A stretch of 35,419 bases of DNA from a virus. The stretch lies in UHGV virus genome UHGV-0163616. One strand, 5' to 3'. The position numbers and the translations under genes were made by a program. The stretch's first letter is position 1. The number at the start of each line of letters is the position of its first letter. The notes under the pieces were generated by a model. The model did not search any database. It was not told the DNA's origin and saw nothing but the letters and a program-made list of their open reading frames with translations. Of the stretch, positions 24,098 through 28,001 are shown one piece after another.

Positions 24098-25534
24098 TCA
24101 GAATCCTCCTTTCTTCTTGGACTGCGGTTCCTCACGTTCACGACGGCGCATTTCAGCAGACTGTTGGTCTGTGTCATAAATAGCGCCATTTGCCTGAATG
24201 CAATACACCGTGCCGGTATTGCCATGACGATTGAGGCGAAGGATTAGTTCGGTTTCACCAGGAGGAACGCTGTCATCAAAAGCACCTTCACGATGGATCC
24301 CGACCCAATAATCGCAATCCTGTTCAATCTGCCCTGTATCTCGCGAGTCACTTGGTAATGGGCGTTTATTGGTTCGGCTTTCCAATGCGCGGTTAAGCTG
24401 TGTCAGAAGCACAACAACGCAATCAAGCTCTTTGGCAAGGTTCTTCAGTCCTTTGGTGATCATGCCGTAAGCAAGGTCGTTGCGATCGGCCTTCTCAGCG
24501 GTCATTAGTGTCAGGTAATCGACCAGAATCATGCCAACACATCCTTTTTCTCGCTTGATTCGACGGCTTTCGCTGACGATTTGAGCCAGAGATAATCCCG
24601 GCGTGTCGTCGATGTAAAGCAGGTCGATTTCACTCAAGCGATTGGCTGTTTCGATCGCCCTGTTGAAGTCACCATCGTAATCACCCTGATAGCCGTCATC
24701 GGCGTCATTTGTCGCAGGAAGGTAAAAAATATTCGGGTTAACACCAGACTTCTGCCCTACCAGTTTTTCCAGTATCTGGTCACCTGGCATTTCAAGGCTG
24801 AACATCAGAGCGGGCTTTTTCTCATGCACTGCGCAGTTGATTGCCATCTGGCTGTATAGCGTCGTTTTCCCCATCTTAGGGCGAGCGCCAATGACAAACA
24901 GAGAGCCTTTCACCAGACCTTTCGGTGACAGCATCCTGTCCAGCGATGGGATCCCTGTGCTCATTCCTCGTTGTTCTCCTGACGGGTCAAATCGCTTCTC
25001 AAGGTCGCTAACCCAGTCTTCCATGACCTCACCAAATGAGCGAAGGCCGCGACGCGATCCGGTTTTTGCATGGTCTGTCAGTTGCGTGAAAATCGCCTGA
25101 ATAGCTTCGTACTTCTGCGTTGCAGTCATTCCATTGCGTGAATAGAGCAATTCCGTCGCTTCAGTCATGCGGTTGATGGCGTAGCGTTCCATTGCGGTTT
25201 CACGAACCTGCATTGCATAGGCAACGATGTTTGCTGCGCTTGGCGTGTTCTTTGCGATCTCAGCGATATAAGCAAAACCGCCAACAGACGCCGTTAACGA
25301 TTTACGCTCCAGTTCATCGAAAAGCGTCAGGCCATCTACTGGCTTTTGCTCCCGGTGCATTCTGGTTATTTCTTCGAAAATGATTTTGTGTGGTCGGCTG
25401 TAAAATGAATCGGGCTTCAGCATCGCCAGAACTTTCTGGACGCGCTCACTGCTGTCATCATCCAGAAGCAATCCACCAATCACCGCCTGCTCTGCCTCGA
25501 TGCTATGGGGCGGTGCATAAAAATTATCGGTCAT
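24098..25534 (-). CDS. Replicative DNA helicase, DnaB family (P22 gene 12-like)
   Basis: Walker A GARPKMGKTT, Walker B LILVDYL, DnaB N-terminal IEAEQAVIGGLLLD; start placed at ATG 25534 (ORF-track start 25549 is a GTG). Confidence 0.9.
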   Translation of the reverse strand: MTDNFYAPPHSIEAEQAVIGGLLLDDDSSERVQKVLAMLKPDSFYSRPHKIIFEEITRMHREQKPVDGLTLFDELERKSLTASVGGFAYIAEIAKNTPSAANIVAYAMQVRETAMERYAINRMTEATELLYSRNGMTATQKYEAIQAIFTQLTDHAKTGSRRGLRSFGEVMEDWVSDLEKRFDPSGEQRGMSTGIPSLDRMLSPKGLVKGSLFVIGARPKMGKTTLYSQMAINCAVHEKKPALMFSLEMPGDQILEKLVGQKSGVNPNIFYLPATNDADDGYQGDYDGDFNRAIETANRLSEIDLLYIDDTPGLSLAQIVSESRRIKREKGCVGMILVDYLTLMTAEKADRNDLAYGMITKGLKNLAKELDCVVVLLTQLNRALESRTNKRPLPSDSRDTGQIEQDCDYWVGIHREGAFDDSVPPGETELILRLNRHGNTGTVYCIQANGAIYDTDQQSAEMRRREREEPQSKKKGGF

Positions 25535-26414
25535 CGTGTTCACCCTCACGAACTTTCAGGTAGGTATTGTCGTTAAGCAGGAAATCAAATCCCTTTTTGT
25601 GCCAGACGGTTCCGCGTTGATGGTTTGGACGCTCTTCGAACATCCATCGGCAATTTTCGCCTACGTAGCTCAAATAATTTCTCCAGTCCTGCATCGTGAA
25701 CCCATGCCCGTCAAGCTGGCGGGTTATCACTCCGGCTTTGCGCCAGAACGTTCGGATCTGGTTTTTACGCTTGTCATTCAGTGCGCGGATTCTTGGCGCT
25801 TCAGGAAGGATTTCGTGGTAAGCATCGACAACATCCTGACAGCTAACGGAAGGTTTTTTCTTGTCAGACTTTTTGTCTGCTGTGGCACTCTCTAATACGT
25901 CAGTATTAGAGATATTATTTATATTATTGTTTATGGACAACCGTTGGACAACCGTTGGACAATCTCCGCTGAGAGCCGCGCCATTACTGGTGTTTGCGTT
26001 GGACAACCGTTGGACAATCGTTGGACAATTTTTTGCTTGAAAATCGTCATATTTAACGATTGTAAACAGGCTAAATTTCTTCCCCATCGAGCAAATATTA
26101 AGCATCCCTTTCGACTCAAAAGTCCGTAATAAGCTCCGAACTTTGTTGTCGGGGATGAATGTTTCTCTGACCAGCGACGGGCGTCCAGTTATCATCTGAC
26201 CGCGATCAACAGTTATCGGACCGATATCCGTATTGACGACAGTAGATTCGTGATTAGCCTTGAGGATTAAGTGAAGCCAAAGATGTACTGCCTGAGAGTC
26301 CTTATAGAGCCTGCTGTCCATAAACTGGCGGTGTATAGAGACATACCCCATACTGGATGCCTCCTGATGTTGTACAGGGTTATGCCTGTAATCAGCTAAC
26401 TTAACGACTCCCAT
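25524..26414 (-). CDS. Replication initiator (O-like; P22 gene 18-like) carrying the origin iterons
   Basis: 296 aa; immediately upstream of the helicase; contains two clusters of direct DNA repeats plus an AT-rich tract in its middle, as in ori-lambda within O. Confidence 0.75.
   Translation of the reverse strand: MGVVKLADYRHNPVQHQEASSMGYVSIHRQFMDSRLYKDSQAVHLWLHLILKANHESTVVNTDIGPITVDRGQMITGRPSLVRETFIPDNKVRSLLRTFESKGMLNICSMGKKFSLFTIVKYDDFQAKNCPTIVQRLSNANTSNGAALSGDCPTVVQRLSINNNINNISNTDVLESATADKKSDKKKPSVSCQDVVDAYHEILPEAPRIRALNDKRKNQIRTFWRKAGVITRQLDGHGFTMQDWRNYLSYVGENCRWMFEERPNHQRGTVWHKKGFDFLLNDNTYLKVREGEHDDR
25933..26070. repeat. Phage replication origin: 2 x 3 tandem 11-bp iterons (TTGGACAAYYK) separated by 33 bp, followed by an AT-rich tract
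   Basis: Iterons at 25933-25965 and 25999-26031 then TTTTTTGCTTGAAAATCGTCATATTTAACGATTG; read directly from sequence. Confidence 0.75.
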
Positions 26415-26562
26415 GTTTCACTCCTGCTTTGGCTAGTCTGTAAACACCAACAAGGCGCTCTGCGAACGCCCTGTTATTTGCTGCGGCTACCACTAATCCC
26501 TCAGGTGAATCAGGGTGTCGAATCTCTTCTTTTTCCTGGTATTTCTTACGACGTTTTGTCAT
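26401..26562 (-). CDS. Small basic hypothetical protein between cII and the initiator gene
   Basis: 53 aa ORF (MTKRRKKYQEKEEIRHPDSPEGL...) not in the ORF track (under 60 aa); ATG preceded by AGGAG with 7-nt spacing. Confidence 0.4.
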   Translation of the reverse strand: MTKRRKKYQEKEEIRHPDSPEGLVVAAANNRAFAERLVGVYRLAKAGVKHGSR

Positions 26563-26596
26563 AATTACTCCTGTGGATTGATCCAGTCTTTCTACA

Positions 26597-26875
26597 TCAG
26601 GCCTCGAAGAATTCGCCGTTCTTCGGGGCTTTTTCTTTTGTCAGCATTCTGGCTACTTTCTTAGCCAGTTCCGCCAACTCCTCGTCTTCAACACCCCACT
26701 CCAGTACAGCCAGAAGCATGGCCATCTTTGGGATAAAGCTGTCTTTCCATCGCGAAATTTGCGATTCATTGATCCCTAATGCATCAGCAACCTTTCGCTG
26801 ACCACGTACAGCAATTCGATTCAGGATGTTGCTTGTAATTGCATTCGCTTTCTTGCGAGTACTTGTAAGTTCCAT
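26597..26875 (-). CDS. cII: CII-like transcriptional activator
   Basis: 92 aa; core SQISRWK......MLLAVLEWGVEDEELAELAKKVA aligns with lambda CII (SQISRWKRDWIPKFSMLLAVLEWGVVDDDMARLARQVA). Confidence 0.85.
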   Translation of the reverse strand: MELTSTRKKANAITSNILNRIAVRGQRKVADALGINESQISRWKDSFIPKMAMLLAVLEWGVEDEELAELAKKVARMLTKEKAPKNGEFFEA

Positions 26876-26923
26876 ATGTAAGTATTTCCTTAACTAATAA
26901 GAAGTTATGCGCATCAACTTATG

Positions 26924-27284: not shown

Positions 27285-28001
27285 ATGGAAAATAAAAAAT
27301 CACTGACGACAGAACAGCTGGAAGACGCTAAGCGGCTTAAGGCTTTGTATGAGTCAAAAAAGAAAGAATTGGGAATAACCCAATACTCAATCGCTGATGA
27401 ACTGGGTATCACCCAAGGAGCGGTAGGGCATTATCTTAATGGCAGAAATGCGCTAAACGTTGAGGTTGCATCTGGTTTTGCACGATTGTTGCAAGTCTCA
27501 ATTGCTGATTTTAGCCAGTCAATTGCTGCCAAGGTTGCAGAACAGGCAGAAAGCCTTAAGAGCGATGCCAACGTAAGGTATGCAGGGGAATACAGAGCAG
27601 GAAAGAGGTATCCGGTGTTAAGCAGTATCCAGGCTGGCTCGTGGTGTGAAGCATGCGAACCATACACCATTAAAGACATAGATGTTTGGCTTGAGTCTGA
27701 CGCGCATATTCAAGGTAATGCGTTCTGGCTTAAAGTGGAAGGTGATTCAATGACGGCACCGGTTGGGTTAAGCATTCCAGAGGGAACATTCGTTCTTTTC
27801 GATACCGGAAGGGAGGCGATCAACGGCAGCTTGGTCATAGCAAAACTTTCTGACTCTAACGAAGCAACATTCAAGAAGCTGATAATCGACGGCGGAAATA
27901 AATACCTCAAGGGACTTAATCCTGCATGGCCTCTCGTGCCAATCAATGGAAACTGCAAGATTATAGGCGTTGCAATTGAGACAAAACTAAGGCTGGTTTG
28001 A
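27285..28001 (+). CDS. cI: CI repressor (HTH plus S24 LexA-like autocleavage domain)
   Basis: 238 aa; N-terminus resembles lambda CI; C-terminal domain (KRYPVLSSIQAGSWCEACEPYTIKDIDVWL...FWLKVEGDSMTAP...GNCKIIGVAIE) resembles 434 cI; Ala-Gly cleavage site and Ser/Lys dyad context present. Confidence 0.9.
   Translation: MENKKSLTTEQLEDAKRLKALYESKKKELGITQYSIADELGITQGAVGHYLNGRNALNVEVASGFARLLQVSIADFSQSIAAKVAEQAESLKSDANVRYAGEYRAGKRYPVLSSIQAGSWCEACEPYTIKDIDVWLESDAHIQGNAFWLKVEGDSMTAPVGLSIPEGTFVLFDTGREAINGSLVIAKLSDSNEATFKKLIIDGGNKYLKGLNPAWPLVPINGNCKIIGVAIETKLRLV

Follow-up and report, generated by a model that had tools for sequence, protein, structure and literature searches.

The stretch of DNA analysed here, 35,419 nucleotides of the virus genome UHGV-0163616 and referred to below as the window, very probably carries the theta-replication origin of a P22-like lambdoid E. 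coli phage or prophage of the HK022/Sf6/L replication type, situated inside the gene for the phage initiator. The candidate origin comprises six 11-bp iterons, an adjoining AT tract and, probably, a palindrome (Table 1). An earlier note on this DNA had proposed that iterons bound by the initiator form an origin within the initiator's own gene, and comparative evidence, homology to the G38P/oriL system of phage SPP1 and published annotation support this proposal. The element is already known; in phages L, Sf6 and HK620 earlier work considered an origin of this type likely. Its function is assigned by comparison, and through a homologue that is only 28% identical over the N-terminal domain.

Table 1. 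Features of the replication region (coordinates of the window)
Feature	Coordinates	Strand	Sequence or basis
Gene for a DnaB-type replicative helicase (overlaps the stop of the initiator)	24098-25549	-	Pfam DnaB (6e-32), DnaB_C (3e-60)
Initiator gene, 296 aa	25524-26414	-	ORF; position of P22-type gene 18
C-terminal domain of initiator (residues ~189-296), presumed to recruit the helicase	25527-25850	-	confident AF2 segment, pLDDT 80-93
Perfect 24-bp palindrome, 10-bp arms, 4-nt centre	25889-25912		TCTCTAATAC-GTCA-GTATTAGAGA
AT tract, 95% AT, probable DNA-unwinding element	25913-25932		adjoins the last iteron, downstream in the gene direction
Iteron, last in the gene direction	25933-25943		ATGGACAACCG (+ strand)
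Iteron	25944-25954		TTGGACAACCG (+ strand)
Iteron	25955-25965		TTGGACAATCT (+ strand)
Unique spacer, 33 bp (3 x 11 bp)	25966-25998		
Iteron	25999-26009		TTGGACAACCG (+ strand)
Iteron	26010-26020		TTGGACAATCG (+ strand)
Iteron, first in the gene direction	26021-26031		TTGGACAATTT (+ strand)
AT tract singled out in the earlier note, 69% AT	26032-26070		encodes ...TIVKYDDFQAKN, end of the DNA-binding domain
Predicted winged-helix domain for DNA binding at the N-terminus (residues ~20-127), with KYDDFQ at its end	26034-26357	-	AF2 and Foldseek

The iteron array

The array occupies a central position in the initiator gene, in the part which codes for the linker between the two domains of the protein, and consists of six 11-bp direct repeats in two triplets (25933-25965 and 25999-26031) on either side of a 33-bp spacer. 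The earlier note had described these as TTGGACAAYYK repeats inside the initiator gene, and they are found exactly where it placed them; five copies match the motif exactly, and the first (25933-25943) has one mismatch. The latter, the last in the gene direction, is truncated (TTGTCCAtaaa on the gene strand) and runs into the AT tract, the same truncation being present in all 28 relatives compared. When the 35.4 kb were scanned for TTGGACAAYYK with at most one mismatch only two further matches were found outside the array, both solitary. The heptamer TGGACAA occurs 12 times in the window against an expectation of 5.0 +/- 2.2, and 0 of 100 shuffles contained at least 12. Six of the twelve copies fall, at 11-bp spacing, within the 99-bp array stretch; the remaining copies are solitary, and no second cluster of the motif was found in the 35.4-kb window. 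DnaA boxes are absent from the vicinity of the origin and fewer than expected by chance in the window. Internal promoters created by the repeats were considered and rejected, the four consensus matches not exceeding chance (2.8 +/- 1.5 expected).

Translated from the initiator ORF the array region reads ...NCPTIVQRLSNANTSNGAALSGDCPTVVQRLSINNN..., in which the duplicated peptide pointed out in the earlier note (CPTIVQRLS / CPTVVQRLS) is present and is explained by the embedded iterons. The converse, that it is the duplicated linker peptide CPTxVQRLS which is selected while the DNA periodicity is functionless, might appeal to the duplication itself and to a loose xP(T/A)(D/E)xQ pattern that recurs in relatives, but we give it almost no chance of being correct. 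The repeat period is 11 nt within a 33-nt (11-codon) unit, so that three copies are read in three frames, and selection on the peptide therefore cannot account for the periodicity. Moreover, the 11-bp layout stays the same from one iteron type to the next whereas the peptides vary widely, and a database variant, P0036, reads the array in a different frame. The linker is predicted by AF2 with low confidence, which fits disorder but is no proof of it, and the iteron cores lack polymorphism even at synonymous positions (26 haplotypes). Two alternative ORFs across this region, 25931-26119 (minus strand) and 25944-26129 (plus strand), exist mechanically, but their open frames are not conserved in relatives; the earlier note rightly regarded them as artefacts, and they should be ignored in annotation.

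The unwinding element

AT-rich DNA flanks the array on both sides. The tract that follows it on the + strand, which the earlier note took for the unwinding tract, does exist (26032-26070, 69% AT), but it is probably the wrong flank; the stability data and the analogy with other phage origins point to 25913-25932, outside the coordinates given at the time, as the probable unwinding element. The GC minimum (0.20) is located here, and the least stable 25-bp duplex among the 35,395 such segments of the whole 35.4 kb is 25904-25928. None of 21 sites in this AT tract is variable among 26 near-identical haplotypes.

It is quite unlikely that the iterons instead open 26032-26070, upstream in the gene direction, and that the left AT tract and the palindrome are incidental. 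The upstream tract adjoins the array and its nucleotides (AAATAYGAYGAWTWYCAG...) are kept in all relatives, but it encodes KYD[DE][YF]Q, the end of the DNA-binding domain, which is invariant in all 28 of them, and this coding function accounts for the conservation. It ranks only fourth among the least stable 25-mers in 24098-26900, as against first of 35,395 for 25904-25928, and in the family as a whole the mean AT content is 72% upstream of the array versus 85% downstream of it in the gene direction. In λ and P22, too, as in SPP1 and five further G38P-like genes, the AT tract comes after the repeats in the gene direction.

The palindrome

Beyond the probable unwinding element lies a perfect, covarying 24-bp palindrome which the earlier note overlooked; the extent that it reported for the origin (25933-26070) was incomplete, and the origin reaches left to 25889. 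Whichever strand is folded, the hairpin has a dG of -7.5 kcal/mol, with a z of about -6. Among 28 relatives the palindrome occurs in 14 sequence variants, and 126/126 cells of these are Watson-Crick pairs compared with 14-40% in slid controls. Compensatory changes preserve the perfect pairing of the arms, G-T wobble does not occur, and the encoded peptides are unrelated. This pattern suggests that the palindrome probably belongs to the origin, and that it acts as a structure (hairpin or cruciform) and not as a sequence-specific site.

Together with the T-rich tract the palindrome could also be read as an intrinsic terminator of antisense (+ strand) transcription or as an mRNA hairpin, which we consider unlikely. 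A consensus scan of the + strand did pick out 25889-25912 together with TATTATTTAT as terminator-like, and in the record of phage L a terminator has been predicted automatically at the same place; however, no more than 3 G-C pairs hold the stem, the T run of the tail is interrupted, and terminator-like sites in the scan are at chance level (3 against 2.1 +/- 1.5). Strict Watson-Crick pairing throughout, with no G-T pair, fits duplex dyad symmetry or hairpins on the two strands better than an RNA helix, and the λ origin possesses an equivalent palindrome in the same place.

The initiator and its neighbours

The initiator belongs with phrog_345, "replication initiation O-like" [E 1.6e-84], and is also matched by PHROG "DnaD-like helicase loader" families [1e-23 and 4e-16]. 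At the amino acid level it is 99% identical to Sf6 gp43 and to the "O" proteins of HK75 and HK629, 82.5% identical to phage L gp18 and 66.8% to HK022 O. Searches of the initiator against Pfam revealed no family at threshold (only a sub-threshold match to DUF7376), those against NCBIfam no match, and those against the PDB by sequence no match either from the single protein or from a 7-sequence profile. Pfam has no model for the N-domain, not even in G38P itself. A scan of the whole window against Rfam likewise gave no family at threshold.

Full-length AF2 on a shallow alignment gave a confident C-domain but an unusable N-domain (pLDDT <50), and a model of the latter (pLDDT 86, pTM 0.78) was recovered only from a deeper, domain-level alignment. 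Its best Foldseek matches are all winged-helix DNA binders (TubR, CRP/GlxR, MarR, BlaI and AspA; TM ~0.5). Comparison with SPP1 gene 38 by tblastn in a 2.3-Gb phage collection yielded 27.9% identity over residues 20-127 [1e-5]. Judged by model and alignment together, the N-domain is a winged-helix domain related to that of SPP1 G38P. For the C-domain model Foldseek found nothing comparable in the PDB, the best E being 2.3.

The genes of the early right operon are ordered cro, cII, a short ORF, initiator and helicase (Pfam Cro, Phage_CII, DnaB and DnaB_C), and Sf6, HK75 and L share the gene order of this replication region. The initiator gene overlaps the helicase gene, and no gene for a loader separates the two. 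A DnaB-type helicase gene is located downstream in every relative which has the same C-domain and enough sequence to judge. In Erwinia phage Eho59 the C-domain is swapped for that of λ O, and a λ P-like gene stands in place of the helicase gene.

Conservation and variation among relatives

Homologs number ~1,600 in all, and 28 relatives at 40-100% amino acid identity were compared. The arrangement of 3+3 repeats, spaced 11, 11, 44, 11 and 11, is found in 26/28, the array starting ~26 nt after KYD[DE][YF]Q, and in all 28 the array is followed by an AT tract and then by a perfect palindrome. The spacer is fixed in length across the family (44 from triplet to triplet, start to start, in 26/28) and free in sequence. 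Natural arrays gain or lose exact 66-bp units, resulting in 9 or 3 iterons, and always retain the AT tract and palindrome; the one 3-iteron array whose context was examined sits in an IS-disrupted prophage.

The scan of viral contigs, which gave only loci 99-100% identical, was used for polymorphism and not for diversity; the genome contig scan was run with a 5-sequence alignment. Among the 26 near-identical haplotypes 0/46 sites are variable in the iteron cores and 0/91 in the cores, AT tract and palindrome taken together, versus 17/33 in the spacer and 199/723 elsewhere in the gene (Fisher p ~1e-12, a value which overstates independence since the haplotypes are related). Gene conversion among the repeats could contribute to the invariance of the iteron cores, but it cannot account for that of the AT tract and the palindrome, which are single-copy.

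The iteron types follow the N-domain (mean identity 77% within and 52% between types) and not the C-domain. The window and HK022 have C-domains which are 99% identical, yet their N-domains are 48% identical and their iterons differ; Eho59 has the iteron type of the Klebsiella-type members, yet a C-domain of the λ O type.

A model for initiation

We propose that the N-terminal winged-helix domain would bind the six 11-bp repeats. The triplets are 66 bp apart, which would set all sites at multiples of 11 bp, roughly one helical turn, and the resulting nucleoprotein array on supercoiled DNA would destabilise the adjoining tract at 25913-25932. The C-terminal domain would then bring in the phage's own DnaB-type helicase, encoded directly downstream, while the palindrome would be a part of the origin with a probably structural role (hairpin or cruciform).

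Sites bound by the initiator need not initiate. SPP1 G38P also has a binding site at oriR, for which a role in fork stalling has been proposed (PMC6316719), and λ iterons on plasmids can inhibit replication (PMC3349717); the array might likewise serve autoregulation, titration/handcuffing or as a fork barrier like oriR, with the origin elsewhere. This seems to us very improbable, for the 35.4-kb window holds no second motif cluster, the least stable duplex of the window lies right beside the array, and the position of the array is that of SPP1 oriL, the site that fires. The genetics of P22/L hybrids also place the origin within the replication-gene region (PMC8022706). An origin at the array remains our preferred explanation.

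Significance

The probable origin has now been placed for a replication module which is common in E. coli, the ori segment being present in 371/5,426 complete genomes, and which is common to P22-like, HK97-like and Stx phages. The annotation is corrected with respect to the extent of the origin (25889-26031) and the side on which the unwinding element probably lies. In nature, the origin illustrates cleanly how a DNA-binding domain travels together with the sites it binds, and a table of the covariation between iteron type and N-domain offers a guide for specificity swaps. The finding, correct but ordinary, leaves the current understanding of phage replication unchanged.

Two wider readings go beyond the published annotation: that the palindrome is an obligatory structural element of the origin, and that a G38P-like domain and its site make up a mobile cassette. 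We advance the two jointly in a tentative spirit, as somewhat more likely to fail than to hold. On the first, the palindrome may be a sequence-independent third element of this class of origin and, by analogy, of oriλ; the hairpin or cruciform could be extruded on opening and fix the site at which the phage helicase is loaded. On the second, all G38P-like winged-helix initiators may carry helically phased 11-bp iterons of their own and an unwinding element directly after the codons for the DNA-binding domain, in phages that may range from those of Bacillus, Staphylococcus and Lactobacillus to enterobacterial, Vibrio, Shewanella and Pseudomonas phages. If this is true, the domain and site would move as one specificity cassette, and the AT tract would hold the recombination junction. 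Lastly, phage origins and palindromes have been reported as triggers of defence systems such as Lamassu (PMC12663957), and a conserved palindrome in a widespread origin type may matter for defence of this kind.

Comparison with known origins

The closest counterparts are the putative origins of L, Sf6, HK620 and HK022, which have in common with the window a TGTCCAACG core in six copies at the same position inside gene 18, gene 43 or "O"; the differences amount to micro-variation at inter-core positions. An initiator homolog and a downstream DnaB-type helicase gene likewise accompany the TGTCCAACG-like repeat in the window. In the GenBank record of Sf6 (AF547987) the same bases are annotated as a putative rep_origin, a "repeat region reminiscent of the phage lambda origin", which maps to 25934-26029 of the window, and the annotation of phage L is similar. 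In gene 18 of the latter TGTCCAACGGA is repeated imprecisely six times, which has been called "likely the origin", and P22/L hybrids exchange the replication region only as a whole (PMC8022706). The published annotations span the repeats alone and leave out the AT tract and palindrome (25889-25932). In the searchable open literature we found no binding, footprinting or replication experiment on iterons of the HK022/Sf6 type, and when the literature was searched with the sequence of the iteron, nothing but unrelated primers matched.

Comparable arrays are those of TubR-tubC, ParR-parC and the RepA iteron plasmids, which small winged-helix or RHH proteins occupy at helical pitch. The tubC and parC centromeres contain clustered short direct repeats of about one helical turn which are bound cooperatively. 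Among the Foldseek matches of the N-domain model TubR ranks first, but the match is weak [6e-3; TM 0.5] and generic for winged helices. These systems are partition centromeres or plasmid origins, whereas the context in the window is a replication module, and the reading of the repeats as a partition centromere was dropped on gene context and on the homology to G38P.

With oriλ the window shares the central location of the origin within an initiator gene that follows cro and cII in the pR operon, and the order, in the gene direction, of iterons, AT tract and palindrome with a 4-nt centre; the λ palindrome after the AT tract has 12-bp arms and a 4-nt loop. In both, the array lies between a DNA-binding N-domain and a C-domain that recruits the partner (presumably so in the window), and specificity resides in the N-domain and the iterons. 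By comparison, the iterons of λ and P22 are four in number, ~20 bp long, internally dyad-symmetric and spaced 20, 24 and 23, while the window has six 11-bp non-symmetric direct repeats in two triplets, and the presumed partner is a DnaB-type helicase in the window as against the λ P loader, using host DnaB, in λ. BLASTP of the window initiator against λ O gave no match, in the same run in which P22 gp18 matched λ O with 43% identity [1e-28]; L gp18 is 15% identical to λ O (PMC8022706). Thus the order of iterons, AT tract and palindrome is that of oriλ, but N-domain homology, 18-20-bp dyad iterons and a λ P-recruiting C-domain are lacking, and among the relatives only the chimeric Eho59 combines a C-domain of the λ O type with a λ P gene. 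The earlier note had called the initiator O-like and the origin organised as in λ. The in-gene iterons are indeed analogous, but no similarity to λ O is detectable in the DNA-binding domain, and at the sequence level "O-like" is analogy, not homology.

SPP1 oriL has been proven by binding, plasmid replication in vivo and reconstitution in vitro. It differs from the window origin in that SPP1 has about five contiguous repeats versus 3 + 33 bp + 3 in the window, no palindrome detected in oriL, a second G38P site (oriR), a Phg_2220_C C-domain (seen in SPP1 only, among 7 proteins scanned) and a separate loader, G39P, encoded between initiator and helicase; the window has neither this C-domain nor the loader. 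The 356-bp StyI-HindIII oriL fragment, which is necessary and sufficient for G38P-dependent replication in vitro (PMC5737612; PMC6316719), holds the segment with the repeats and AT tract. Repeats of 11-bp period and then an AT tract directly follow the N-domain in SPP1 and in five other distant homologs. What the window shares with SPP1 is a homologous N-domain, in-gene 11-bp repeats with an AT-rich, probable unwinding element, and a phage helicase of the DnaB family.

Location of the putative origin and its replication module

The six iterons lie within a minus-strand ORF of 296 aa. The repeats are real, and the earlier note was correct in its main interpretation, an origin of replication inside the initiator gene; the element is already on record as a putative origin in phages L, Sf6 and HK620. 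The DNA sequence of this ORF matches the "O" or gene 43 genes of HK629, HK106, mEp234, IME10, HK75 and Sf6 at 99% identity. The GenBank rep_origin feature of Sf6, which maps to positions 25934-26029 of the window, is annotated as [quoted passage not shown], and the phage L record holds a similar feature. In P22 and L the whole replication region is exchangeable while single genes are not (PMC8022706). In the literature searched, no experiment on binding or replication came up for iterons of this type. To this description we add the corrected extent and probable unwinding side of the origin, a covarying palindrome which is absent from published annotations of this origin type, a binding domain of G38P rather than λ O ancestry, and copy-number alleles of the array.

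Features of the putative origin and its surroundings
Feature	Position	Strand	Remarks
DnaB-type helicase gene	24098-25549		Pfam DnaB and DnaB_C; start overlapped by initiator stop
Initiator gene	25524-26414	minus	296 aa
Palindrome	25889-25912		TCTCTAATAC-GTCA-GTATTAGAGA
AT tract	25913-25932		95% AT
First iteron triplet	from 25933	+	ATGGACAACCG, TTGGACAACCG, TTGGACAATCT
Spacer			33 bp, unique, between the triplets
Second iteron triplet	to 26031	+	TTGGACAACCG, TTGGACAATCG, TTGGACAATTT
Conserved 53-aa ORF	26401-26562	minus	phrog_1331
oop-like antisense RNA unit	26560-26640	+	terminator stem 26599-26631
cII	26597-26875	minus
cI-like repressor gene	27285-28001	+
Tandem duplication	27484-27528		imperfect, 21 bp, 2 copies (79% match), inside cI-like repressor gene

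The window is an E. coli (pro)phage, a P22-like podovirus most closely related to vB_EcoP-720R6, phiv205-1, CUS-3 and Kapi1. Besides CII it encodes a λ-type Cro and an S24-peptidase repressor; tRNA genes were not found. Ahead of the initiator lie Cro, CII and the 53-aa ORF, which overlaps the initiator start by 14 nt. P22 (orf48), HK022, L, Sf6 (gene 42) and Klebsiella phages all have this small gene in front of the initiator, so it appears to be a constant part of the replication module. The oop-like unit begins with 28 nt (26560-26587) matching, with zero mismatches, the sequence given as the conserved pO / oop 5' region (PMC3349717); a 14-pair stem and a T run follow, overlapping the 3' end of cII. 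No matching family was found in Rfam.

The iteron array

The 11-bp direct repeats are arranged as two head-to-tail triplets, both reported at period 11 by Tandem Repeats Finder, as the sequence reading had proposed. With up to one mismatch the pattern recurs only twice more in 35.4 kb, each copy isolated. The core heptamer TGGACAA is present in 12 copies against 5.0 ± 2.2 expected, half of them within the 99-bp iteron stretch. Three 11-nt copies make up 33 nt or 11 codons, so that each triplet passes through all three reading frames. The second triplet is offset by 66 nt (22 codons) and is read alike, giving the peptides CPTIVQRLS and CPTVVQRLS; the repeated peptide is thus, as suggested earlier, caused by the DNA repeat. 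The unit contains no stop codon in any frame of either strand, and among relatives the stop-free stretches that cross the array in the other five frames run from 4 to 168 codons with no consistency. The two alternative ORFs over the array, for which curated records carry no annotated feature, are mechanical, and it was right to dismiss them as artefacts.

One database protein (P0036, 292 aa) has the array translated in an alternative frame (…KIVQRLSNGCPTQTPVMARLSAEIVQRLSINNN…) before regaining the original one, reflecting misassembly of the repeats or else a linker that tolerates any reading frame. Many "partial" initiator entries (among P0121-P0191, 130-190 aa) end in or just past the iteron region, which suggests that short-read assemblies often break there.

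AT tract and palindrome

The probable unwinding tract adjoins the iterons on the other side from that originally assigned. The segment first proposed (26032-26070) has an AT content of 69% and codes for the invariant last part of the DNA-binding domain, whereas the opposite flank (25913-25932), which comes after the iterons in the direction of the gene, is 95% AT and shows a GC minimum. By nearest-neighbour energy the least stable duplex among all 35,395 25-mer windows is 25904-25928.

We compared 28 family members of 40-100% identity (the window, five phage records and 22 loci from species-representative genomes). In all 28 the direct repeats begin about 26 nt past a conserved KYD[DE][YF]Q, and after them come roughly 20 nt of AT tract and then a palindrome whose arms, 9-11 bp long, pair perfectly. 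The spacing is 11, 11, 44, 11, 11 in 26 of them. Two Leclercia/Silvania loci (L103 and L104, ~2409-2500) have a 12-bp period instead, with ATTACCAAC-type repeats spaced 12, 12, 56 and giving an NYQ peptide repeat; position, AT tract and palindrome are as usual.

The palindrome forms a predicted 10-bp hairpin of about -7.5 kcal/mol on either strand (z about -6), which might be taken for an antisense terminator, a weak explanation. It occurs in 14 distinct versions among the 28 relatives. Across nine pair positions, each showing two to four pair types, 126 of 126 cells are Watson-Crick, with no G-T (slid controls, 14-40% pairing). The encoded peptides are unrelated (ISNTDVLES, ISSTDVEES, LLPNGSKYV, NSLDKSNEC and others). 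Selection thus favours dyad symmetry, rather than the protein or a particular sequence.

About 85 near-identical loci yielded 26 haplotypes of the 166-nt origin segment. Iteron cores (TGTCCAAC), AT tract and palindrome varied at none of 91 positions, compared with 9/16 inter-core positions, 17/33 in the spacer and 199/723 in the rest of the gene (Fisher test, p ~1e-12, a value that overstates independence as the sequences are related). The spacer is therefore free in sequence and fixed in length. Natural alleles differ by gain or loss of exact 66-bp units: a 318-aa variant has nine iterons and a 274-aa variant three, the latter examined in one context, a Shigella flexneri 8401 prophage disrupted by an IS. 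All of these alleles keep the AT tract and palindrome beside the last, truncated iteron.

The initiator and its specificity

The description "O-like initiator" holds as a family name, the protein belonging to phrog_345 ("replication initiation O-like"), but not as likeness to λ O, to which BLASTP gave no similarity; the same run aligned P22 gp18 with the λ O N-domain at 43% identity. Residues 20-127 are instead homologous to the N-terminus of SPP1 G38P (27.9% identity) and to PHROG families named "DnaD-like helicase loader". The AlphaFold model of this N-domain, based on a 27-sequence alignment (pLDDT 86, pTM 0.78), is a predicted winged helix-turn-helix. Its top Foldseek matches were all winged-helix DNA binders (TubR, CRP/GlxR, MarR, BlaI, AspA), at TM of only ~0.5. 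The C-domain (about residues 189-296) was modelled confidently, found no match in the PDB, and shows weak similarity to the C-terminus of P22 gp18 (E 0.002-0.08). A DnaB-type helicase gene lies directly downstream in every relative carrying this C-domain for which enough sequence was available.

Relatives fall into iteron types A (TTGTCCAACGN), B (TTACCAGCARA), C (GTGCCAACARA) and D (TGTCCAGCCR), with minor types E (one locus) and F (the 12-bp-period variant). Type tracks the N-domain (mean identity 77% within types versus 52% between) and is independent of the C-domain, as would follow from recognition of the repeats by the N-domain. Compared with HK022, the window has a 99% identical C-domain, a 48% identical N-domain and different iterons. 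Identity rises from ~48% (N-domain and iterons) to 99% exactly at the boundary of AT tract and palindrome (~25913-25932), pointing to exchange of the specificity cassette (domain plus iterons) by recombination within the AT tract. The initiator of Erwinia phage Eho59 combines an N-domain of this kind (41-54% identity) and type C iterons, as in members with an unrelated C-domain, with the C-domain of λ O (70% identical); the gene behind it is λ P-like. The protein is thus modular, with the origin placed exactly at the domain junction.

Two loci are probably contamination or mislabelling: the assembly labelled as Chryseobacterium sp. 18061 contains a prophage replication module of enterobacterial type (L092, 86% aa identity), and a Catenulispora assembly contains a 501-bp fragment (L112).

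Comparison with other origins

By analogy with λ and SPP1, winged-helix domains would fill the six sites, spaced at multiples of 11 bp and so on roughly one helix face; on supercoiled DNA the complex would melt the adjoining AT tract, the C-domain would bring in the phage DnaB-type helicase, and the palindrome would probably stabilise or delimit the opened region. No DnaA box was found near the origin.

A distant G38P-like initiator gene in Pseudomonas phage KLEP17-4 (nt ~330-420) has six GTGAACAGCAG repeats of 11-bp period and then, despite a GC-richer context, the palindrome GTATTACC-TGGC-GGTAATAC, so this element may extend beyond the enterobacterial subfamily. At the equivalent place λ has a palindrome with 12-bp arms and a 4-nt centre. 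The AT tract also follows the repeats, in the direction of the gene, in λ, P22 and SPP1, and likewise in five other G38P-like genes (Lactobacillus, Staphylococcus, Vibrio, Shewanella and Pseudomonas phages); in SPP1 and these five, 11-bp-period repeats stand directly behind the domain. The SPP1 segment of repeats and AT tract is contained in the 356-bp StyI-HindIII fragment, which includes the G38P-bound repeats and the unwinding element and is necessary and sufficient for replication in vitro (PMC5737612; PMC6316719).
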